Shown here one piece after another: positions 9,127 through 26,468 of a stretch of DNA of 64,000 nucleotides. The notes below the pieces were generated by a model. That model saw only the letters and a list, made by a program, of their open reading frames with translations. It was not told the DNA's origin and made no database searches. Position 1 is the stretch's first letter; the number at the start of each line of letters is the position of its first letter. The translations under genes and the position numbers were made by a program. The DNA is taken from the sequence record MT682711.1. The stretch is one strand, 5' to 3'. The DNA comes from Escherichia phage vB_EcoM_FB.

Positions 9127-9516
9127 TTAACCACTCTGTGAGAGCTGGATTCTAATTTGCTCTAATGTGTCCGGGTCGTCAACAATACTAAACTGAACTG
9201 TTACTATAATAGAGTTGTCATCATAAACAGGGGTTACACCTACAGCAAGAGCAGAAATTCTGGGTTCGAAGTTCCGCACAGCGGAAACTATATTACGCTT
9301 AATGGTGTCTGTGATTAATGGGGTAATATTCTCAAACAACTGATTGCTAATATCACATCCAAATTCAGGCATAAAAGGGCGTGAACCTTTGCGAGTAGTA
9401 ATAATGCCTAACAAACTATTTTTTACTGCACGAGCACCTGTAGCTTTAGCGACGTCTCTATTCCAAGACGTCCTCATTTCAGGGTCTAAATCTGAATACA
9501 TTTTATTGATATTCAT
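9127..9516 (-). CDS. 25: baseplate wedge protein gp25
   Basis: 129 aa; SLLGIITTRKGSRPFMPEFGCD as in T4 gp25. Confidence 0.9.
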   Translation of the reverse strand: MNINKMYSDLDPEMRTSWNRDVAKATGARAVKNSLLGIITTRKGSRPFMPEFGCDISNQLFENITPLITDTIKRNIVSAVRNFEPRISALAVGVTPVYDDNSIIVTVQFSIVDDPDTLEQIRIQLSQSG

Positions 9517-10139
9517 TACATCACCTTAAAGAACTCTTTAAGTCCCTCAATAACGTGGACGGTGTGTTCACCACATTCACAAGAAATAGGTATAGCCAAA
9601 ATAGGCTTAGGGGCGACTAGTGCATCATAAACTTCTTTTATATCTTTTTCTGTTATCACAGAATAAAGGTCATCAAGTTCCGCATCGCTTAAATCGGAAA
9701 GAAAAAGCTTTTCGCCTGCAGAAGTTAAAATATAATCGATACACCCGGCGACCATCATAGCTCTATTTTTATCTTCAAAGAGTTTAGGATATCTGAAAAC
9801 AATTTTAAAGTTGCCAAAGTCTTTAATAACATCCGGCTCTTTACCCAATGTTGCTCGAGTTAGTGTCATAGGGACAACCTGTGAGCGACCACAACTACAA
9901 CTCCACTCACGTTCTATATTCACTTCAGCTAATGAATGGGCCCACAGGTTTATCACCAGGAGCTCAGATTCTTGCTTGTTTAAATCACGAGCATCTGTGC
10001 AATTCGAAATGAGTTCATTGATAAAGGACTCTATTCTGCCTTCTAATTTAGCTTGGAGCAAGTCCTTATACTCTCTGAGGGTAAATGCTCTGCATTTTAT
10101 GGTTTTGTTTTTAATTTTTACGTCAAAAGTATAATTCAT
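9516..10139 (-). CDS. 26: baseplate hub subunit gp26
   Basis: 207 aa; AAGGAG SD; synteny 25-26-51-27. Confidence 0.85.
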   Translation of the reverse strand: MNYTFDVKIKNKTIKCRAFTLREYKDLLQAKLEGRIESFINELISNCTDARDLNKQESELLVINLWAHSLAEVNIEREWSCSCGRSQVVPMTLTRATLGKEPDVIKDFGNFKIVFRYPKLFEDKNRAMMVAGCIDYILTSAGEKLFLSDLSDAELDDLYSVITEKDIKEVYDALVAPKPILAIPISCECGEHTVHVIEGLKEFFKVM

Positions 10140-16712: not shown

Positions 16713-16742
16713 ATAGTAACACCATCCTTGGCGTTTGTAAAC
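16713..16742 (-). promoter_or_regulatory. early promoter (GTTTACA-N17-TACTAT)
   Basis: 19-nt core ATAGTAACACCATCCTTGG shared with the copy at 61996..62024. Confidence 0.5.
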
Positions 16743-18793
16743 TACCCTTGTACAAATTTATATTGGAGAGCGTCGATATCTATACAAGAAGCTAACAAGC
16801 CAAGACCTCTGTCTGAGTTCTTTTTCTTCTCATTAGAAACAAATGAATCAAAAGAAAGCTCACCACCATCTTTATAGACAACGAGTTCTCCTGTTTCCAT
16901 TAGGGCATCACCGTCGTATACTACAGCTTCATTAAGTTCATCTGCAGTCATTACTTCGGCTTGAATAAACTTATTGTTAGAACGAGTAGTCCCGTTGTTA
17001 TATGAGGCATCTGTAATTTTATTGATTTTAACCATCAACCCTCTAGGAAGAATTACTTCCATTTCGTTAGAAGGGGCTAGGTCTCCACCAGGTAAAACGA
17101 CATTTACTTTATTAGCACCAGTAATGGCCCAACCGATACCTACTAAGGTATCTTTAACTGAATATACCAAGCCTTCATCAGATTTATCTAAAGCAACATC
17201 TCGACGCTTTTCATCAGGTAAAACACCAACACCAGAATCGGTCATCCATGTACCAAAAATATTTGGATAAAGTGATGTTGATACAAAGTTCCTGAAATAG
17301 AATACTTTGTTTTTAACCATAGCCAGGTAAATATCAGGAATCATTCGTTGAGAACGATAAAGCGTGATACCTTCCGGAAGTTGTTCACCATTTTCAAAAG
17401 CAGAATCTAAGTTATTGATAGCTTTTTCTATCTCTTCATTAGTCAAAATACTGGTTCTTGTATTAGGGTCGCGGATTCCTAAAAGAACATTATTCATATC
17501 TTCGTAACCGGAGCCAACGTATTCACGAATACCACGCTTCTGTGCTGGTGTATAACGAGATACGTCTTTATTTTCTACAATAGAATGTAATTGCCAACCC
17601 GCGGTAAGAGCATAAACACGCAGTTCGCGCTGAATAATTTTGGTCTTTATAGCATTCCAAGAATTTTCGGCTAACTCTATGGCTTCGTGATAACCTAAGT
17701 GAGAATGCCGGGCCATTAGTTTTTGAAGCCAAGGGCCTTTATATTCTTCGATGACATCATCAACCACTGAAGCATAATTTTCTAGAGCTTTTACTGAAGT
17801 CACATTTAATCCATGTAATTTCTCAAAAGCTCTCATTTTTATGTCGGTATTAATTTCTTCCATTTTATCTTCTGGAATAAGAAGGTTGTCTTTAAACGAC
17901 ATACCGCCGGTATTAGCACTAATGGTATTTTCTAAAGCCAAGAAAGAATTAGAAATAACCTTTATTTCATTTGCTTCCGGCATTAAAGGACCTGTAGCAG
18001 GTTTATTCAATTCGACAGCATTAGACTCAAATTTCTTAAACATTGGAGTTTCGAAACGAGATGATTCTAAGGATTGCGACATAGCAATAGCACGACGTGA
18101 AATCTTAGTCTTGGTAATGACAGCCTTATCAGTACGTTTCTCTTCAACTTTAGCTATACTTGCCGAGACGGCTTCGGCCTTACTTACGGCCTGGCCAGTT
18201 TCCTTAGAAACATAAACTTCGCCAACTTTAGACTCAACCTTAGTATAAAGCTCGGCATCAATTTCAGGCATACCCTTAATATCTTCAATATTAGTACCAC
18301 GACGTACTAAAAGAACATAGGTATGTTTTCCGGTGAATTGGTACATGGCATCAACAACTTTAAACTTACCACCAGTACGAGCCATAGCTAAACGAGCTAA
18401 TACACGCTGAACAGTAGGACCCTTACCTTTCATTTTCTTGGTAGGGAACCGGAAAAGAACTGCATCCATTTTAAGTTTGTTTACTTGTTCGTATACAGTA
18501 TCAAAAATGGTATTCAGCGTACCAAGTGGGTCAGAACCTAACCCACCTTTCAACTCGGCTGGGCTACCCTTAGCAGACAAACTCATCAAAATAACATGAA
18601 CATATTTGTCTCCGGGCTTAACCATTTTAATAGCGTCTCCTTGAGACGCATAAGATACCATACGAGCAACCAGGTTATCATTACCTGGCGCTTTAATAGA
18701 GAAAATCTGTGGGATACCGGAACCTGGTTTAAGATTTATTACTGGATAGTTTTTATCGGAATCACTATCAAAAACCTCGTTTAAATTTTCCAT
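16742..18793 (-). CDS. alt: Alt-family ADP-ribosyltransferase (copy 1)
   Basis: 683 aa; R-S-E ART-like motifs YRSQ, FRNFVSTSL, EMEV; position between 54 and 30. Confidence 0.8.
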   Translation of the reverse strand: MENLNEVFDSDSDKNYPVINLKPGSGIPQIFSIKAPGNDNLVARMVSYASQGDAIKMVKPGDKYVHVILMSLSAKGSPAELKGGLGSDPLGTLNTIFDTVYEQVNKLKMDAVLFRFPTKKMKGKGPTVQRVLARLAMARTGGKFKVVDAMYQFTGKHTYVLLVRRGTNIEDIKGMPEIDAELYTKVESKVGEVYVSKETGQAVSKAEAVSASIAKVEEKRTDKAVITKTKISRRAIAMSQSLESSRFETPMFKKFESNAVELNKPATGPLMPEANEIKVISNSFLALENTISANTGGMSFKDNLLIPEDKMEEINTDIKMRAFEKLHGLNVTSVKALENYASVVDDVIEEYKGPWLQKLMARHSHLGYHEAIELAENSWNAIKTKIIQRELRVYALTAGWQLHSIVENKDVSRYTPAQKRGIREYVGSGYEDMNNVLLGIRDPNTRTSILTNEEIEKAINNLDSAFENGEQLPEGITLYRSQRMIPDIYLAMVKNKVFYFRNFVSTSLYPNIFGTWMTDSGVGVLPDEKRRDVALDKSDEGLVYSVKDTLVGIGWAITGANKVNVVLPGGDLAPSNEMEVILPRGLMVKINKITDASYNNGTTRSNNKFIQAEVMTADELNEAVVYDGDALMETGELVVYKDGGELSFDSFVSNEKKKNSDRGLGLLASCIDIDALQYKFVQG

Positions 18794-18796
18794 TAT

Positions 18797-20881
18797 TTAC
18801 CCTTGGATGAATTTTTCTGGGATGTCATAGAGGTCTATGCATGAAGCCAAAAGAGGCAGTACATCAAACCGTGTAGATTTAACAAATGAATCAAAAGATA
18901 CGGGGCTTTCGGAAGTATCGAAGTCATCTTGATATACGACCAACTCGCCGGTTTCCATTAGTACGTCACCATCATATACCACAGATTCTTGAAGCTCATC
19001 TGTTGTCATAACTTCAGCTTGGATGAGTTTTGTATTACTAGATGTTGTTCCATCATTATTAGAAGCATCTGTTATTTTATTAACTTTGACCATTAATCCA
19101 CGCGGTAGAATAACTTCGGCTTCAGTTGCTATTCCGAGATTTCCTGGATATACGACATTAACTTTATGAGCCCCATCAATGGCCCATCCTATTTGAACCT
19201 TAACGTAATCGGGATTTTCCTTATACGCTCTTATTTCATTAGGATTAATAGTTATTCCTTCTTCATTTTTATCAACTGTCAATTCGTTGCGAACTTCCGG
19301 TTCTAAAAGACCAATACCAGCGTGCGTAACACCAAAACGTCCGAAAATTATAGGAGTTAAAGAAGTAGATACAAAATTTCTAAAATAAAACACTTTATTT
19401 TTAACTAGTGCTTCGTATATAGGAGCAGTCATACTCTGGGCACGATAAACTGTAATGCCTTCCGGTATACGGTCACCATTTTCAAAAGCTGAATCTAAAT
19501 TATTTACAGCGGATTCGATATCTTTTTCGCTCATAACCTCATAGTTCTGAGGATTATAACGTCCTAAAAGAAGATTATTTATGTCTGTATATCCTGAACC
19601 ACAATATTCTCTGATGCCGCGCTTTTGTGATGGGGTATATTTAGAGCCCTCACGAGCAATAGTAATATCGACCATAATACCACCACCTACACCAGCAAAA
19701 CTATACACACGTTTTTTAATGAACTTAGTCTTGGCTGCTTTCCACTTGGACTCGGTTAATTCATTCCAGACGTCGTCAGGTTGGCCTTTACGAGTTCTGT
19801 TATGGATAGCCAGCCACTCGCCTTTATATTCTTCGAAAATGGTATTAATGGTAGAGGCATATTTTTCCAGGGCTTTAACAGATGTCAAAGGTTCATTTTT
19901 GATAGCTGTAAGAATTTTCTCTTTAATTTTCTCTTGGATTTCACCAATACCGTGAAGTGGGAACAATTTATAGTCGTAATGCAATTCTTCAGCAGTGCCT
20001 TCAGCTACTATATTAGCAACCTTATTTTTAGCCGCAGGAGAATTGTTATTAGTGACCATTTCCTGGGCCTCAGGGATTAATGGAACTGTTGCCGGTTTAT
20101 TAAAATCTACTGCAGTAGCTTCATATTTCTTAAACAGCTCACTTTCATTACGATAAGATTCTAACGATTGACTTGCCGCAATAGCACGTCGAGAAATCTT
20201 AGTCTTGGTTATAACCATTTTATCAGTGCGACGTTCTTCAACCTTAGCAATACTACCGGCGATAGCAGTTTCTTTAGTAACCTGCACGCCTTCTTTTTTA
20301 GAAATATAAACTTCACCGACATCAGAATCTACCTTAGTATACAATTCAGCATTAATTCCAGGCATACCTTTGATATCTTCTATATCAGCTTGTTTACGAA
20401 CTACCAGGATGTAAGTATGTTTACCGGTAAATTGGTACATAGCCGGAACTACTTTAAAACGTCCACCTGTTTTCTGTGCTACCAAACGTTGGATAATCCG
20501 TTGAACGATAGGGCCTTGACCTTTCATTTTCTTAGTAGGGAAACGGAACATCACGGCATCCATACGAAGCTTTTTAACTTGGTCATAAACCACATCAAAA
20601 ATAGTATTAATCGCATCTACGGGAGTAGGGCCTAGGCCACCTTTAAGTTCGGCAGGCGAACCTTTAGCTGAAAGGCTCATAAGGATAACGTGGGCATATT
20701 TATCACCCATCTTAACCTGTTTAATAGCATCACCTTCAGAAGCGTAGGATACCATACGCGCCACTAATTGGGATTCTGCGTCACCAATCTTCCAAATCTG
20801 GGGTACTTTAAGTTTTGGGTTCAAGTTTACTGTAGGCAGTGTGCCTTCGGACTCAAACACTTCATTTAATTGTTCGGTCAT
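18797..20881 (-). CDS. Alt-family ADP-ribosyltransferase paralog (copy 2)
   Basis: 694 aa; same motifs (YRAQ, FRNFVSTSL, EAEV); full-length similarity to copy 1, divergent middle third. Confidence 0.8.
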   Translation of the reverse strand: MTEQLNEVFESEGTLPTVNLNPKLKVPQIWKIGDAESQLVARMVSYASEGDAIKQVKMGDKYAHVILMSLSAKGSPAELKGGLGPTPVDAINTIFDVVYDQVKKLRMDAVMFRFPTKKMKGQGPIVQRIIQRLVAQKTGGRFKVVPAMYQFTGKHTYILVVRKQADIEDIKGMPGINAELYTKVDSDVGEVYISKKEGVQVTKETAIAGSIAKVEERRTDKMVITKTKISRRAIAASQSLESYRNESELFKKYEATAVDFNKPATVPLIPEAQEMVTNNNSPAAKNKVANIVAEGTAEELHYDYKLFPLHGIGEIQEKIKEKILTAIKNEPLTSVKALEKYASTINTIFEEYKGEWLAIHNRTRKGQPDDVWNELTESKWKAAKTKFIKKRVYSFAGVGGGIMVDITIAREGSKYTPSQKRGIREYCGSGYTDINNLLLGRYNPQNYEVMSEKDIESAVNNLDSAFENGDRIPEGITVYRAQSMTAPIYEALVKNKVFYFRNFVSTSLTPIIFGRFGVTHAGIGLLEPEVRNELTVDKNEEGITINPNEIRAYKENPDYVKVQIGWAIDGAHKVNVVYPGNLGIATEAEVILPRGLMVKVNKITDASNNDGTTSSNTKLIQAEVMTTDELQESVVYDGDVLMETGELVVYQDDFDTSESPVSFDSFVKSTRFDVLPLLASCIDLYDIPEKFIQG

Positions 20882-20913
20882 AATAATTCCTCTTTAATAA
20901 CCTTATTTATGCC

Positions 20914-20931
20914 AGAAAAGGCCCGAAGGCC
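20914..20931. terminator. hairpin upstream of alt copy 2
   Basis: AAAGGCC-cgaa-GGCCTTT. Confidence 0.5.
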
Positions 20932-20935
20932 TTTA

Positions 20936-21118
20936 TTAAAGTACTAACAGCGTACGGTACACTTCAAATTTAGGACCCTTTTCATAGCGGTCGAAATTAT
21001 CTTTAAAATCAGCGAACGCGATTTCATTTTCAAATTCAAGGACAATTTGGGACACTGCAGTGGAGACATCCCCACCTTCTTTATATCCAATAACCACGGT
21101 TTCTAAATAAGCTTTCAT
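20936..21118 (-). CDS. hypothetical small protein (60 aa)
   Basis: start re-set to ATG 21118, one nt after the ligase stop. Confidence 0.45.
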   Translation of the reverse strand: MKAYLETVVIGYKEGGDVSTAVSQIVLEFENEIAFADFKDNFDRYEKGPKFEVYRTLLVL

Positions 21119-21119
21119 A

Positions 21120-22643
21120 TTATAGACCAGTTTGAGACCAATCACCGAATACATCTTCAAATGTATCAGCTTCTGTTTTATCGAAACGCCAACCTTTAAT
21201 GATTGGAAGGAAAATACCTACAGTATCAGTACGTCCTTTAGAATGAACCCAACCATTACATTCACAGTCAGCAATACGTCCAATCAACTTACCTTCACGA
21301 GCTTGTTTCATAAGAAGTTCACGGTCTAAATCAGGACGGTCTTCCAATGGAATCAATACCTTTTTACCTGATTTATCTTTCTTATGGGTAGTATCTTTAA
21401 AGCCTGAACCACAGTCACTTGTAATTCGACGACAACGTGATACTAACTCAACACCACCTAGTTTGTTAGGGTCCTTCGAGTGTTCATAATAACCTACCAC
21501 TTCTAAAGCGATATCGATTACTTCTTTGAACTTGATAAGATTCTTAGAACGGCGGTTTTCCCAGTAGGAGTCCATGTTCTTAAGGATAATGCCTTCCAGA
21601 CCTTGGTCGACATATTTCTTATAAACGACTTTAGCTTCTTCAAGATTATTAACCCACTGGTTTTCGATAGCTTCAACACGCGTTGTGCCATGCAATACGA
21701 CATTATGAGCCACCATAAGTTCTAAGGCTGTAAAGCGTACATCATACTTATCGCCTTTAATTTTGCCTTCAGAATACACGACATCCAGTGGGACATAATC
21801 CCATGCCTGTAATACCATACCAGCGGCTTCAGTAGCCGAAATAGTTCCTTGAAGAGCCTTATTAGCCAATCCATTTGACGTAGAACGATCGGCGACAGTT
21901 TGGAATTCCTTAGCCTTACTTAATTCAGGAAGTTCCTCGTCAAACATACTAAACAAATCATTAGATGCTTTAGGTTCTACCTTAGGAGTATGGTAAACTA
22001 ATTCGCCATCAATCATAACGCCATTAGGATGGCGTTGTCGAGCTTCTTCGGTCATGGCCATTAATTCAGCCGCCAAAAGATTAAGCCCTTGATATTCGTT
22101 ACCACCACGAGTAAGGAATGTCACACCATCGTTACGAACTTCGGCAAAACAACGAGCACCATCAGCTTTTAATTGAGCAAACGCTGGCCATTTAATATTT
22201 TTCTTAATCAAAGCTTCATCATAAGAACTCGCCAACATCTGCGGTTGTTCAGGGATTAAACCTTTCCAACCCTTGTTAGCAATAGAAATCGATGCACCAC
22301 ATTCAAGGTCGCGCATCATTACACGACGTAATACCTCGGCATCCGGGGCCTTAGCATCAGCAATGATTTGAGCCAGTTCTTCAATAGCCGCATTACCCGT
22401 AATCTTACGTGTGGCTAATGTGAATTCAGCGAAATCAAGAAGGTCTTCAAGAGTAATCATACCAAAGGATTGAGATGTAAATCCAGGTTCTGGCCACTTT
22501 TTAATACCGTAGTTCAGACGACGGGTATAAGCCATACGATAAACACGTTTCAGAAGCTCATTGTCCTTTTCACGAGCAATAATGGCTTCTTTAGCTTTAG
22601 TAGAATCAATAGCAGCAATTTCGTTTAAAATATCTAAAATCAT
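21120..22643 (-). CDS. 30: ATP-dependent DNA ligase gp30
   Basis: start re-set to ATG 22643 (MILDILNEIAA); KADGAR adenylation motif; GAGGTGATT SD. Confidence 0.95.
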   Translation of the reverse strand: MILDILNEIAAIDSTKAKEAIIAREKDNELLKRVYRMAYTRRLNYGIKKWPEPGFTSQSFGMITLEDLLDFAEFTLATRKITGNAAIEELAQIIADAKAPDAEVLRRVMMRDLECGASISIANKGWKGLIPEQPQMLASSYDEALIKKNIKWPAFAQLKADGARCFAEVRNDGVTFLTRGGNEYQGLNLLAAELMAMTEEARQRHPNGVMIDGELVYHTPKVEPKASNDLFSMFDEELPELSKAKEFQTVADRSTSNGLANKALQGTISATEAAGMVLQAWDYVPLDVVYSEGKIKGDKYDVRFTALELMVAHNVVLHGTTRVEAIENQWVNNLEEAKVVYKKYVDQGLEGIILKNMDSYWENRRSKNLIKFKEVIDIALEVVGYYEHSKDPNKLGGVELVSRCRRITSDCGSGFKDTTHKKDKSGKKVLIPLEDRPDLDRELLMKQAREGKLIGRIADCECNGWVHSKGRTDTVGIFLPIIKGWRFDKTEADTFEDVFGDWSQTGL

Positions 22644-22653
22644 AATCACCTCA

Positions 22654-22932
22654 TTAGTCATGGATTCTATTATAAGCCACATCAGCCAAAAGCAAGTCTA
22701 ATCGCTTATGATAAGAGAACACAAATCTCATTCGCCCATCAGATTTGAACTTGGACATAAAGTGGACATAAATGAATCCCTGTTCGACGCATTCGCGCCA
22801 AACAGGATGGTCTTTAGCCGGATTTACATCAAATGAGTAATCATGATTCACATGACGAATAAACTGGTTTACATGGCCATAATCCATTGTAGTGGTAGGA
22901 CCATAGTCTGAAATTGTATGAACTACAAACAT
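22654..22932 (-). CDS. hypothetical protein (30.1 position)
   Basis: start re-set to ATG 22932 with GAGGTTAAT SD. Confidence 0.5.
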   Translation of the reverse strand: MFVVHTISDYGPTTTMDYGHVNQFIRHVNHDYSFDVNPAKDHPVWRECVEQGFIYVHFMSKFKSDGRMRFVFSYHKRLDLLLADVAYNRIHD

Positions 22933-22933
22933 A

Positions 22934-23572
22934 TTAACCTCGAGCAATCCATTCAACTGCGGCATTATTACGAAGGGATTCGATTGCTGCGATATCGTCC
23001 CATGAATTAACCTTTACGGCCAAATTAGGTTTAAAGTCACGTTCACCACGAGCCAACCAATAAACTTGGATATCCATGAGAACATTAGATGCGGCATCAC
23101 AGTGGTGAGCCAAATCATCAACATAAAACTTAATACGTTTACCGTACGTATTTTTAGCTCTTATGAAGAGGTCTTCTTTTGATTCTGAATGACCACACAT
23201 CAGAATCTCCTTGAATGCGCCAGGGAACAAAGCATTCAAATTGAATTGTCTATTCAGCAGTGCATCAATTGAGTCGCCTAGCGCAGTCACGGCTACAAAA
23301 TCGAAGTCTTTTTTGAGCTTGTTGATATGTTTTAATGCGTCCATGTAAGGAGACAGATAACGAATAAAATCTGACTGATTGTACTTCTCGATTAAACGAG
23401 CGCCTAATTCATTATCACAATTAAACAGCTCACCAGGAGATAAGAAACGTTCGTCCTGAATCATATTCAAAATATGTTCTAAAGGCAAATTATATTTCTG
23501 TGCGAAATAAGGCAAGCCGGACTGCCAACTTAAACATACTCCATCGATATCTGTTAAGATAACTGGTTTCAT
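22934..23572 (-). CDS. HAD-superfamily hydrolase-like protein (30.2 position)
   Basis: N-terminal ILTDIDGV matches HAD motif I (DxDGx). Confidence 0.6.
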   Translation of the reverse strand: MKPVILTDIDGVCLSWQSGLPYFAQKYNLPLEHILNMIQDERFLSPGELFNCDNELGARLIEKYNQSDFIRYLSPYMDALKHINKLKKDFDFVAVTALGDSIDALLNRQFNLNALFPGAFKEILMCGHSESKEDLFIRAKNTYGKRIKFYVDDLAHHCDAASNVLMDIQVYWLARGERDFKPNLAVKVNSWDDIAAIESLRNNAAVEWIARG

Positions 23573-24027
23573 AATAAATCTCTCAATTTGTTTAGGATGT
23601 CGATAAACTCTTTTTCAGTTAGTATTGTATCACATTCTGTAAGGTGGCTCGCCATCGAATGCTTTAAAACTTTGCCCTTTGTAGCTTGTAATGCGTCGCG
23701 GAATCCTTTGTTTTGGAGCGCTGCTTCAAAATATGCATTTGTATACAACTCTTTCCATGATGTAGAGTATCTTGAAAAGGGAATTCCAAGCCAGAAAAGC
23801 GTCCCACGGTCCGCAGCTCTTGCATAAGCTCTTCCAGTTTGTTGTGCGGCCAGACCGGACATCCCAAATATACGTTTTTGTTGTTCATGATTTCTCACCT
23901 TACACCCTTGGAGGAATCCTTCGAGCCCTCCAAATTGGATACCATCCATAACGAAAGGCCATTTAGCAAAGTTACTTAATGCACACGATGGCCATGGAAA
24001 ATTGCTTCTTATTTCTAACTCAGACAT
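23569..24027 (-). CDS. NADAR (YbiA/DUF1768)-like protein
   Basis: LSNFAKWPFVMDGIQFGGLEGFLQ resembles the YbiA FSNFAAWPIKVDG core; start re-set to ATG 24027. Confidence 0.55.
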   Translation of the reverse strand: MSELEIRSNFPWPSCALSNFAKWPFVMDGIQFGGLEGFLQGCKVRNHEQQKRIFGMSGLAAQQTGRAYARAADRGTLFWLGIPFSRYSTSWKELYTNAYFEAALQNKGFRDALQATKGKVLKHSMASHLTECDTILTEKEFIDILNKLRDLL

Positions 24028-24232
24028 CTTTGACACTTATAATTTCGACATCAGCCCAATGACCATAACCAGGTAGACGGTCTTCAATAGATAATCCGCC
24101 ATCAGATTTCAGCATTTTAATTGTTTTAGTATATGGTTCATCTTGCGGATGCACAGGAGATAAATCAGTTACACGATAAGTCACTTCGACCATTTCCGTA
24201 CCTAATAATTTCTGAATCAATTTCTTAAACAT
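24020..24232 (-). CDS. hypothetical protein (70 aa)
   Basis: ORF with TAATATG junction to upstream gene. Confidence 0.45.
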   Translation of the reverse strand: MFKKLIQKLLGTEMVEVTYRVTDLSPVHPQDEPYTKTIKMLKSDGGLSIEDRLPGYGHWADVEIISVKDV

Positions 24233-24233
24233 A

Positions 24234-24428
24234 TTATCCTCGCTTTAAACATTTGATTACAGACAGTTCACCGCCCATGCGAACGTCTTCAGTTCCATCG
24301 ACCCATAGGACGGTGTAGGCTTCTTTAATAGTAACATTACCTAATTTAAAAGCAGGTAGAACCTTTGAAATCATTCCAGGAATACCTACGCCTTTTAACT
24401 GGACTGTTTGCGATAAAAATAGTTGCAT
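24234..24428 (-). CDS. hypothetical protein (64 aa)
   Basis: ORF with TAATG junction. Confidence 0.45.
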   Translation of the reverse strand: MQLFLSQTVQLKGVGIPGMISKVLPAFKLGNVTIKEAYTVLWVDGTEDVRMGGELSVIKCLKRG

Positions 24429-24715
24429 TAGAACCTCATCTGAAAGCCGTGTGATTTAACATTACCGCCGTAGATGTCAGAGGTGTTGACTTCACGGGCG
24501 GCACTAGGGTCGATATTGATATCACGGTTGAGCTTAGTGATTGCTAAGGTATCACGACCATTAACAGTACGGAATTCTACTGGACATACAACATCAGCAT
24601 AGGCCTTAATAGATTCACGAGTAGGTTGTTTGTCGGCAGGAACGTCTTTACCTGCTTTAGAGAAAACAACTTCACAGAAATTTTTACGAGTATCGAAATA
24701 AGTGGTCATAAACAT
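24428..24715 (-). CDS. hypothetical protein (95 aa)
   Basis: start re-set to ATG 24715 with GAGGAAAAT SD, downstream of the hairpin at 24731. Confidence 0.5.
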   Translation of the reverse strand: MFMTTYFDTRKNFCEVVFSKAGKDVPADKQPTRESIKAYADVVCPVEFRTVNGRDTLAITKLNRDINIDPSAAREVNTSDIYGGNVKSHGFQMRF

Positions 24716-24730
24716 AATATTTTCCTCAAA

Positions 24731-24746
24731 GGAGGCCGAAGCCTCC
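24731..24746. terminator. UUCG-tetraloop hairpin (GGAGGC-UUCG-GCCUCC on mRNA)
   Basis: identical 16-nt hairpin recurs at 63042..63057, each followed by an SD. Confidence 0.5.
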
Positions 24747-24756
24747 ATTTTTAAGA

Positions 24757-25122
24757 TTAGATGTCGAATTCGTTCAGAACTACATCAAAGATTGCTTCCA
24801 GGTGTTCAGGTTTAGCTCGGTTGCTCAGGATGTGACGAATCCAAGTTTTAACCAGAAGCTTACGATTAACACCGTTCCAGCAAGGATGGGTACCTAAATC
24901 ACGTTGACGGAAATCATCATCTAAAGCGATTTTAAAAGTAGAACCTTCCATTGTGATTGAAACCGTAATACCATTTTCAAAGCGCATATAAACGTAGTTA
25001 GGAGTCATGCACTGTTCGATTTCGCACACCGCGCCGTTGTTGTGTTTCCACAGGCAAATAACTTCAGAAGAACCAGCGATACCGTTAGAAACATATTTAC
25101 GTTCGAAGTTGATGTAGTTCAT
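24757..25122 (-). CDS. hypothetical protein (121 aa)
   Basis: CTGGAGAATAAA SD; leader duplicated from the next gene upstream. Confidence 0.5.
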   Translation of the reverse strand: MNYINFERKYVSNGIAGSSEVICLWKHNNGAVCEIEQCMTPNYVYMRFENGITVSITMEGSTFKIALDDDFRQRDLGTHPCWNGVNRKLLVKTWIRHILSNRAKPEHLEAIFDVVLNEFDI

Positions 25123-25149
25123 TTTATTCTCCAGTTTGTTTTCGTATTA

Positions 25150-25186
25150 TTTGGTACAGGTCTATAATAACACAACCTGTACCAAA
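25150..25186. other. strong intercistronic hairpin (11 bp perfect stem, 15 nt loop)
   Basis: TTTGGTACAGG / CCTGTACCAAA; loop carries a degenerate -10-like TATTATAGA. Confidence 0.6.
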
Positions 25187-25195
25187 GTAAAACAT

Positions 25196-25528
25196 TTATT
25201 TCACAACATTCCAATTTTTCATATCAAGTTTACCAACTTTTTTCATCTGAGCAATCAGACGTTCAGCACGTGTACGGGCATTAACATAATAGAATTCACC
25301 ATTTTTGTTTTCTTCAATACGACCAGTAATTACAGTTTTCAGTTCATAAATCCAACCTGTAAAGAAGTTGTGAAGCTCGATGGTGAATGTAAAATCAGTA
25401 CCCATACCTTCAGTTGTTTCAACTTCGATGATATCACCTTCAACTGCAGTCAGGACCCACATGGTTTCTTGATATTCACCGTTGAAACATTTAGCTTTAA
25501 CAGATGCATTCAGATTTACAGTTTTCAT
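25196..25528 (-). CDS. hypothetical protein (110 aa)
   Basis: ATG with GGAGAATAAA SD and its own early promoter. Confidence 0.5.
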   Translation of the reverse strand: MKTVNLNASVKAKCFNGEYQETMWVLTAVEGDIIEVETTEGMGTDFTFTIELHNFFTGWIYELKTVITGRIEENKNGEFYYVNARTRAERLIAQMKKVGKLDMKNWNVVK

Positions 25529-25569
25529 TTTATTCTCCAGTTTGTTTTAGTATTATTTGGTACATGTCT

Positions 25570-25598
25570 ATAGTATCATGCCTACCGGAGATGTACAC
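25570..25598 (-). promoter_or_regulatory. early promoter variant (TGTACA ... TACTAT)
   Basis: RC reads GTGTACAtctccggtaggcatgaTACTATAGA. Confidence 0.45.
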
Positions 25599-25626
25599 CC
25601 TTTTTTAAAGATTTAGAAACAAAAAT

Positions 25627-25644
25627 GGGACTCCGAAGAGTCCC
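25627..25644. terminator. UUCG/CGAA-loop hairpin
   Basis: GGGACTC-cgaa-GAGTCCC just downstream of the small ORF stop. Confidence 0.55.
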
Positions 25645-25649
25645 ATAAC

Positions 25650-25811
25650 TTATGCCTGAGGCTTACCAAAGCAAGCAGCATCTGCACGCAATACTGCACG
25701 AGCACGAGCTTGAAGCTTATCAACTACCTGATTGATACGCTTGTTGGACGCACGCTTGTAACCAGCGCGTTTAGAGGTACCGTCAACTACTTTAACTTCT
25801 TTCTTAGCCAT
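25650..25811 (-). CDS. small basic protein (53 aa), unassigned
   Basis: MAKKEVKVVDGTSKRAGYKRASNKRINQ...; CGT/GGT/AAA-rich codon use; terminator immediately downstream; weak SD. Confidence 0.4.
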   Translation of the reverse strand: MAKKEVKVVDGTSKRAGYKRASNKRINQVVDKLQARARAVLRADAACFGKPQA

Positions 25812-26073
25812 TTTAAATCTCTTAAATTAGGATGCAGGACTTATTGGCGTTGCCTGCGCAAGCCCTCAAGGGGAACATAGGTTTCGGATATTTAACGACA
25901 GGATAACCATAAACCTCGTCATCATACCAACCACGACTTAGACAGATAACCTTTTTCTGACGCGTGATAGTACAAAATACATTCAAGAGGTACACCGTAA
26001 AACTGTTGGGGTCTTAAAACTATAATGATTCGCAAATCATTAATCAAACAGTTCGACGGCTCCTCGATTTAAC

Positions 26074-26322
26074 TTACTTCAGGGTAATAATAAAATGACG
26101 TACTGCTTTACGAGCTGCTGAAGCCAAAGGCTTAGCAAATTTCAGTTCATCTTTAGCTTCCAGTTCAGCAGCCAGAGTAGCCTGAGCAGGATTCAGATGT
26201 TTGAAATAACGCAGGATTTCCAGTGCTTCGGCTTCAACATCAATAGATGCGCCGTAGTTTTCGTGACCGTTGTTCCAAGCGTTGCGTTGCAGTTCAAGAG
26301 CGTGATTCAATTGTTTGTTCAT
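26074..26322 (-). CDS. rIII: rIII lysis inhibition accessory protein
   Basis: 82 aa; MNKQLNHALELQRNAWNNGHENYGASIDVEAEALEILRYF matches recalled T4 rIII. Confidence 0.85.
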   Translation of the reverse strand: MNKQLNHALELQRNAWNNGHENYGASIDVEAEALEILRYFKHLNPAQATLAAELEAKDELKFAKPLASAARKAVRHFIITLK

Positions 26323-26468
26323 TTTAGTTTCTCAATTCGAGATAAAGATTGGTGGACACGTTCTTCTGAATTTCACTTCCTTTCGGCAAGTCTCTCAGTT
26401 GTAGTCCACCGCTTAGGATTCTCCGGTTAACTAACTAGTCCGGCAGCCAATCCATATTATTATTTATA

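Follow-up and report, generated by a model that had tools for sequence, protein, structure and literature searches.

Two overlapping genes lying beside the DNA ligase gene of Escherichia phage vB_EcoM_FB (MT682711.1) raise the question of whether they act together on ADP-ribose. The stretch of DNA analysed, here called the window, is 64,000 nucleotides (nt) long, and an initial annotation of it had read one open reading frame (ORF) as NADAR-like and its neighbour as HAD-like, had taken the two to be coupled and, with tandem alt genes not far away, had proposed that the locus encodes writers and erasers of ADP-ribosylation or, alternatively, an anti-defence hydrolase. Both ORFs lie on the minus strand at the positions given there, and since they matched profiles and had homologues in many phage records they are taken to be true genes and not chance ORFs:

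23569..24027, minus strand: adfN (gene 30.3), a predicted NADAR-superfamily DNA ADP-ribosylglycohydrolase of 152 amino acids (Pfam PF08010, 86% identity to T4 gp30.3, structural model and Foldseek search)
22934..23572, minus strand: gene 30.2, a predicted C1-capped HAD-superfamily phosphatase (NT5C-like) of 212 amino acids
23569..23572, minus strand: ATGA stop/start overlap of 30.3 with 30.2, read directly from the sequence

The best explanation of the whole, to which a probability of about 0.85 is attached, is that 30.3 encodes an orthologue of the T4 anti-defence protein AdfN and that 30.2 encodes a separate HAD phosphatase standing outside the anti-DarTG1 function.

The identity of the first gene was established at several levels. 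Its product, which contains ALSNFAKWPFVMDGIQFGG, aligns to T4 gp30.3 without gaps along its whole length of 152 amino acids, at 86% identity and with 22 substitutions; an in-frame GTG at 24036 would lengthen the product by three amino acids, and T4 gp30.3 begins at the ATG. The protein matched Pfam family PF08010 (Phage_30_3) with 215 bits (cut-off 36 bits; E 3.9e-64) across profile positions 2-138 of 138, belongs to PHROG 652 and has homologues in 1510 phage records, being nearly universal in Straboviridae. Direct membership of the Pfam NADAR/DUF1768 family, PF08719, was not borne out, as a Pfam scan of the window protein gave no match to that family at E<=1; two homologues (P0143 and P0218) matched both PF08010 and PF08719, and the tie to NADAR is one of superfamily and fold and not of PF08719 membership. 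At that level the NADAR-like reading held well. The segment LSNFAKWPF, on which it had been based, is the one that aligns to Escherichia coli YbiA (E 1.2 with the single sequence and E 0.037 with a 40-sequence profile), and YbiA was the sole match of the gp30.3 profile among PDB sequences, at E 0.037. An AlphaFold (AF2) model built on 40 homologues reached a predicted local distance difference test (pLDDT) score of 94.8, and a Foldseek search of the PDB with it found YbiA 2b3w (E 1.4e-5, probability 1.00), the Geobacter lovleyi DarT1-associated NADAR 8bat and the Phytophthora nicotianae NADAR 8bau, which headed the matches with probabilities of 0.99-1.00 and alone reached 0.99; all other PDB matches of the model had E > 2.

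The catalytic residues, whose absence had been named in advance as grounds for giving up the NADAR reading, are all present, and across 40 homologues, down to 36% identity, they are invariant:

23920..23922, minus strand: codon GAA for E36 of AdfN, catalytic Glu, invariant in 40 homologues; mutated to E36A in T4
23899..23901, minus strand: codon AAG for K43, phosphate-binding Lys, invariant in 40 homologues; K43A impaired in T4
23659..23661, minus strand: codon CAT for H123, in the last strand, replacing the Glu/Asp of other NADARs, invariant in 40 homologues

The C-terminal helix, which the inactive RB69 allele has lost, is complete as well, the alignment to T4 running to the last residue and the helix being modelled at residues 138-151 with pLDDT ~96-98. 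Given these three invariant residues and the whole C-terminal helix, the gene at 23569..24027 is assigned, on sequence grounds, as adfN, the orthologue of T4 gp30.3. Inside it an ORF of 74 amino acids in another frame (23664..23888, minus strand) corresponds to the annotated 30.3' of T4; as a conserved gene it was rejected, the frame being open in relatives at 85-100% identity and closed in NADAR genes at 37-44%.

The function of the T4 protein has been published, and the anti-defence hydrolase offered as an alternative for this locus is thus already known as the demonstrated role of the T4 orthologue. Johannesman et al. 2025 (PMC11825919) renamed T4 gp30.3 AdfN (anti-DarT factor NADAR), found that T-even phages need it to resist the DarTG1 toxin-antitoxin defence and that it suffices for this resistance, and showed that it strips ADP-ribose from DarT1-modified DNA in vitro; the E36A and K43A variants were impaired, with E36A losing activity, and an RB69 allele without the last 15 residues was associated with DarTG1 sensitivity. 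The same paper reports that AdfN-T4 is fully effective only in T-even infection and needs a T-even factor. In an independent study (PMC11125620) T4 gp30.3 hydrolysed guanine-linked and not thymidine-linked ADP-ribose, and the histidine in the last strand is described there and in a third paper (PMC11543638) as a hallmark of phage gp30.3-type NADARs. By this mechanism the host DarT1 toxin would modify guanine in phage DNA with ADP-ribose, and AdfN, a stand-alone NADAR, would cut the N-glycosidic bond between ADP-ribose and guanine, freeing ADP-ribose so that replication could go on in hosts bearing DarTG1; E36 would hold the distal ribose and K43 the phosphates, with H123 standing for the Glu/Asp of other NADARs.

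Demonstrated for the T4 protein, this mechanism is probably shared by the protein of the window, given 86% identity and intact residues. The adfN genes of T4 and of the window also occupy the same slot between 30.4 and 30.2, with overlaps of 8 nt and 4 nt, and have E36, K43, H123 and the C-terminal helix in common. The present phage differs in being Dhakavirus-like and not a Tequatrovirus, in the 22 substitutions and in that its AdfN is known from sequence; T4 is the source from which the activity is extrapolated, and with 14% of the sequence different the specificity could have changed. More distant comparison is possible with the NADAR antitoxins associated with DarG1/DarT1 (G. lovleyi 8bat, E. 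coli C7) and with YbiA (2b3w), which share the alpha+beta NADAR fold and the active-site Glu and Lys but are only 16-18% identical to the window AdfN. The latter carries His in place of the Asp of the BC4488 clade or the Glu of the YbiA clade and, unlike the DarG1-type antitoxins, has no linked DarT gene; T4 AdfN further differs from those antitoxins in that it did not rescue DarT1 toxicity in uninfected cells.

The second gene encodes a protein of 212 amino acids whose N-terminus is MKPVILTDIDGV. It matched PHROG 420 (E 1.5e-70), has homologues in 1447 phage records, again nearly universal in Straboviridae, and shares 74% identity with T4 gp30.2 over the first 194 residues of the latter. An additional low-complexity tail of ~85 amino acids, rich in P, N, Y and W, extends T4 gp30.2 at the C-terminus and is lacking in the window protein (compare 22934..22990, the C-terminus here, with 9475..9730 of the T4 locus L001); such tails differ widely in length and sequence across the family, whose members reach a total of 347 amino acids, and a Pfam scan of the extra regions of fused relatives (P0293, P0339, P0287 and P0242) found no domain. 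A HAD profile match, which had been proposed as a check, was not obtained, no Pfam or NCBIfam model scoring above threshold on the window protein, and PF00702 appeared below threshold in 7/30 close and 36/125 distant relatives. It was the motifs that upheld the HAD reading, at superfamily level: the DxDG of motif I, from which that reading had started, is accompanied by the other three. Among 31 close homologues D8, D10, K132, D152 and D153 were invariant and T96 was present in >=90%, and among 125 relatives, down to ~20% identity, D8, D10 and K132 were still invariant and D153 was found in >=90%. The motifs are located as follows:

23543..23551, minus strand: motif I, D8-I-D10, nucleophile and acid/base Asp, codons verified; invariant in the 31 and the 125
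23285..23287, minus strand: motif II, Thr96, codon ACT; >=90% of the 31 homologues
23177..23179, minus strand: motif III, Lys132; invariant in both alignments
23114..23119, minus strand: motif IV, D152-D153, Mg2+ ligands; invariant in close homologues, D153 in >=90% of the wide family

The model of gp30.2 (pLDDT 93.8) consists of a Rossmann-like core into which helices, corresponding to a C1 cap, are inserted between motifs I and II, and by modelled fold and motifs the protein is classed as a C1-capped HAD-superfamily phosphatase. It would be a separate enzyme, a Mg2+-dependent phosphomonoesterase working through an aspartyl-phosphate on D8, with D10 as acid/base, T96 and K132 holding the phosphate and D152/D153 the Mg2+; the four-helix cap (~residues 15-86) would enclose a small substrate, for which a (deoxy)nucleoside monophosphate is the most probable candidate. 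Literature searches on gp30.2, and on 30.2 together with HAD or phosphatase, found nothing relevant.

Whether the two genes form a functional pair turns on their arrangement and on the behaviour of T4 mutants. The pairing could be read as a two-enzyme counter-defence module in which gp30.2 processes the product of AdfN or is itself the T-even-specific factor that AdfN needs, and several observations favour it: 30.3 and 30.2 are co-transcribed with an ATGA overlap, 34 loci in Tequatro-, Mosig- and Dhaka-type and some remoter T4-like phages keep them adjacent, almost all Straboviridae carry the two families (1510 and 1447 records), and AdfN-T4 has the T-even dependence reported in PMC11825919. 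The overlap itself is not specific to the pair, since other junctions of the cluster are also tight or overlapping, and their common operon and ATGA reflect the packing of the cluster as a whole. The neighbours concerned are:

24020..24232, minus strand: gene 30.4, 70 amino acids (PHROG 2042, E 3.6e-34)
22654..22932, minus strand: gene 30.1 (DUF3045; PF11243, E 5.9e-16, the match starting from residue 12 of the long ORF)
21120..22643, minus strand: gene 30, ATP-dependent DNA ligase (PF01068, E 1.5e-23)

At the 30.3/30.2 junction, TTATTATGAAA, the TGA stop of 30.3 and the ATG start of 30.2 have 4 nt in common and a GAGAG Shine-Dalgarno-like element lies 7 nt upstream. Genes 30.4 and 30.3 overlap by 8 nt (24020..24027; junction AAAGATGTCTGA), 30.2 and 30.1 are separated by 1 nt, the true start of 30.1 being the ATG at 22932, preceded by GAGG; GAGGTG precedes the start of the ligase gene at 22643. 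Overlapping or tight junctions are therefore usual along the cluster. The direction of the genes also alters the arrangement first described: the pair does adjoin the ligase gene, but in the direction of transcription it lies upstream and not downstream of it, and the HAD gene, which had been placed upstream of the NADAR gene, follows it.

Two bodies of evidence bear on the pairing. The synteny sample comprised 67 viral loci with a gp30.2 homologue of >=43% identity. Gene 30.2 was immediately upstream of the ligase gene in all 67, and a gp30.3-type gene lay within 5 kb of it in 34, with none within that distance in the other 33; at least nine complete T4-like genomes carried their NADAR gene 55-60 kb from 30.2. 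The second is the transposon data for T4, taken from the HIDEN-SEQ supplementary tables (bioRxiv 10.1101/2025.11.20.689424), with Data S6 for the comparison of control and DarTG1 hosts. Under DarTG1 insertions in T4 30.3 were lost (log2 fold change -7.25, adjusted p 0), whereas those in T4 30.2 (71 sites) were neutral (log2 fold change -0.12, p 0.61); T4 30.2 was also non-essential, with 72/72 TA sites hit, and neutral in M9 minimal medium (log2 fold change -0.10). Because the synteny is split and T4 30.2 is neutral, a functional pair is not supported, nor is the coupling of HAD with NADAR that had been suggested, the two being neighbours in 34/67 loci and T4 30.2 insertions having no effect under DarTG1; gp30.2 as the missing cofactor of AdfN was rejected on Data S6 and the synteny together. 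The module is largely refuted for DarTG1 and appears very improbable in general, all the more as the free ADP-ribose released by AdfN has no phosphomonoester, so that its direct product offers a HAD phosphatase no obvious bond, and other phage NADARs act alone. A caveat that must be applied is that the transposon data come from T4, whose gp30.2 bears the ~85-residue tail missing here, and this weighs against placing the window's gp30.2 outside the anti-DarTG1 function. In one of the genomes with a distant NADAR gene (IMGVR_UViG_2706796796_000001; L079, 4217..5453) that gene stands directly after the anti-CBASS gene acb1 and near a deoxynucleoside monophosphate (dNMP) kinase gene, a grouping that looks like a small anti-defence cluster.

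Other explanations draw on the neighbours of the pair. The NADAR could act as an eraser, taking ADP-ribose off proteins or RNA and in this way offsetting the Alt (and ModA/ModB) ADP-ribosyltransferases of the phage itself, and the tandem alt genes that prompted the idea are real, lying ~2.7 kb downstream in the same direction of transcription:

16742..18793 and 18797..20881, minus strand: two tandem Alt ADP-ribosyltransferase genes (PF03496, identity of the paralogues and to T4 Alt)

The two are full-length paralogues, 56% identical to each other; the first has 59% identity to T4 Alt, and the second matched PF03496 at E 3.8e-36. T4, unlike the window with its two full-length genes, has one alt together with the remnants alt.-1 and alt.-2. 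Against the eraser stand the substrate of T4 gp30.3, whose demonstrated activity is on ADP-ribose linked to guanine in DNA, with none on thymidine-ADP-ribose (PMC11125620), the difference in linkage, the target of Alt being arginine, the neutrality of T4 alt insertions under DarTG1 in HIDEN-SEQ and the positions of NADAR genes in other T4-like genera, which are not near alt. The sole known phenotype of T4 gp30.3 is DarTG1-specific, and the passages of literature on gp30.3 that were available contained no test or reversal of Alt-type arginine-ADP-ribosylated proteins; such a role is hardly to be expected. The ligase gene suggests instead that gp30.2 acts on nucleic-acid ends, removing 3'-phosphates as the HAD domain of T4 polynucleotide kinase does and readying nicks for the adjacent enzyme. 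Synteny in Straboviridae is rigid in general, so the position of 30.2 beside ligase is weak evidence, and the phage already has pseT. C1 caps are typical of small-molecule HADs, and Pnkp-type DNA and protein phosphatases are capless. The match of gp30.2 to Pnkp is restricted to the core (125-130 residues) and gp30.2 has a full helical C1 cap (~15-86), all of which makes a function on ends improbable.

For the HAD phosphatase of the preferred reading, an AdfN orthologue followed by a separate enzyme, the nature of the substrate was sought by wider comparison. A scan with the family profile of 1.84 billion representative proteins yielded 1188 gp30.2-related clusters, and a profile of 125 of these matched Staphylococcus epidermidis 3bwv over its full length (E 1.2e-6), the next matches being the yeast SDT1/SSM1 pyrimidine nucleotidase, an XMP phosphatase and mitochondrial and cytosolic 5'(3')-deoxyribonucleotidases. 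Single-sequence PDB searches with 30.3 and 30.2 were marginal and a profile of close gp30.2 homologues did no better; a significant match to a nucleotidase came with the wide-family profile only. NT5C (PF06941) is the Pfam family matched by most members (48/125, best E 4.2e-10). With the NT5C family (cdN/mdN; 3bwv) gp30.2 shares the HAD core and helical C1 cap, and the DxDGV..(W/F)xSGL pattern after motif I aligns to mouse cdN; the family is the best match by sequence profile and near the best by fold. Identity is 14-18%, the window protein falls below the Pfam NT5C threshold and its nucleotidase activity is predicted. Several observations count against the assignment: the window gp30.2 scores 13.4 bits on Pfam NT5C, where the gathering cut-off is 24.8, by fold generic HAD phosphatases score equally with nucleotidases, and T4 gp30.2 has no phenotype in any of the conditions that could be read from the sources. 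The best-supported reading is that gp30.2 is a (deoxy)nucleotide monophosphatase, at roughly even odds, and a nucleotide substrate should be regarded as a lean and not a result. Beside distant homologues of 28-34% identity on marine T4-like contigs stand genes of nucleotide metabolism, namely of the GMP reductase/IMPDH family, MazG and cytidine/dCMP-deaminase-like (L154 5612..6622, L158 5697..6005 and L151 4615..4926).

An example of the use to which a phage may put a dNMP phosphatase is provided by T5 Dmp, a deoxynucleoside-5'-monophosphatase whose removal of dAMP blocks the Kongming defence (bioRxiv 10.1101/2024.12.20.629578); it is no evidence about gp30.2, and T4 is not mentioned in the Kongming preprint. 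Like gp30.2, Dmp (L162 124..858) is a phage-encoded, early-expressed phosphatase, and HAD-type DLDGT (D22, D24) and MIDDH motifs can be made out in it by eye, although a Pfam scan of it gave no match. It belongs to a different phage family and has no detectable relation to gp30.2 beyond the region of motif IV; a relationship between the two was rejected at an hhalign probability of 3%.

The T-even factor reported for AdfN may lie on the other side of the gene. Under DarTG1 HIDEN-SEQ found T4 30.4 insertions depleted (log2 fold change -1.79, adjusted p 0.014), those in T4 30.6, 30.7, 30.2 and 30.1 not being significantly depleted (bioRxiv 10.1101/2025.11.20.689424). Inspection of the junction revealed no Shine-Dalgarno sequence belonging to the adfN start in the window, and since adfN has none of its own, its translational coupling to 30.4 is the simple explanation of the depletion. 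Gene 30.4 may also encode the factor itself: 721 phage records contain gp30.4 and 729 contain an AdfN >=80% identical to that of the window, and gp30.4 is a candidate because AdfN-T4 reportedly needs a T-even factor and the distributions match. Two linked possibilities, which taken together must be considered speculative and rather unlikely, are that gp30.2 is a Dmp-like nucleotide phosphatase of the T-even arms race and that 30.4, not 30.2, is the T-even factor of AdfN. On this view gp30.2 would clear a nucleotide that is sensed, or converted to a signal, by some defence absent from E. coli K-12, and if true this would explain why 30.2 is kept in ~1450 phage genomes yet is silent in K-12.

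The surroundings of the pair agree closely with those in related phages. The 1.7 kb around 30.3 and 30.2 shares 99.8% DNA identity with Escherichia phage QL01 and 94-99% with IME08, Bp7, MX01 and WG01, the record of IME08 giving the genus as Dhakavirus. Genes of this region are all on the minus strand. In T4 the order is cd, 31.2, 31.1, 31, rIII, 30.9 ... 30.1, 30 (ligase), alt.1, alt, and the order of transcription here (30.4 > 30.3 > 30.2 > 30.1 > 30 > alt.1 > alt) is the same as in T4 and IME08; judged from its sequence, the window comes from a T-even coliphage of Dhakavirus type and holds its early gene block 30.4-30.3-30.2-30.1-30. A promoter and terminator scan of 20800..26400 returned sites no more numerous than in shuffles and was not used to define the operon. 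A strong terminator-like hairpin with a GC-rich stem of 9 bp and a T-run (25625..25646, minus strand) stands between 30.9 and 30.8, where an upstream early transcription unit may end.

What the locus adds is one more T-even genus with an intact AdfN, from which the phage is predicted to resist DarTG1, a prediction useful for host range and not new biology. The pairing of NADAR and HAD genes near Alt is best seen as an accident of T-even gene packing, and recognising it as such guards against the annotation of 30.2 as an ADP-ribose-processing enzyme. The residual value of the locus lies in the substrate of gp30.2 and in the lead that 30.4 offers on the T-even dependence of AdfN.

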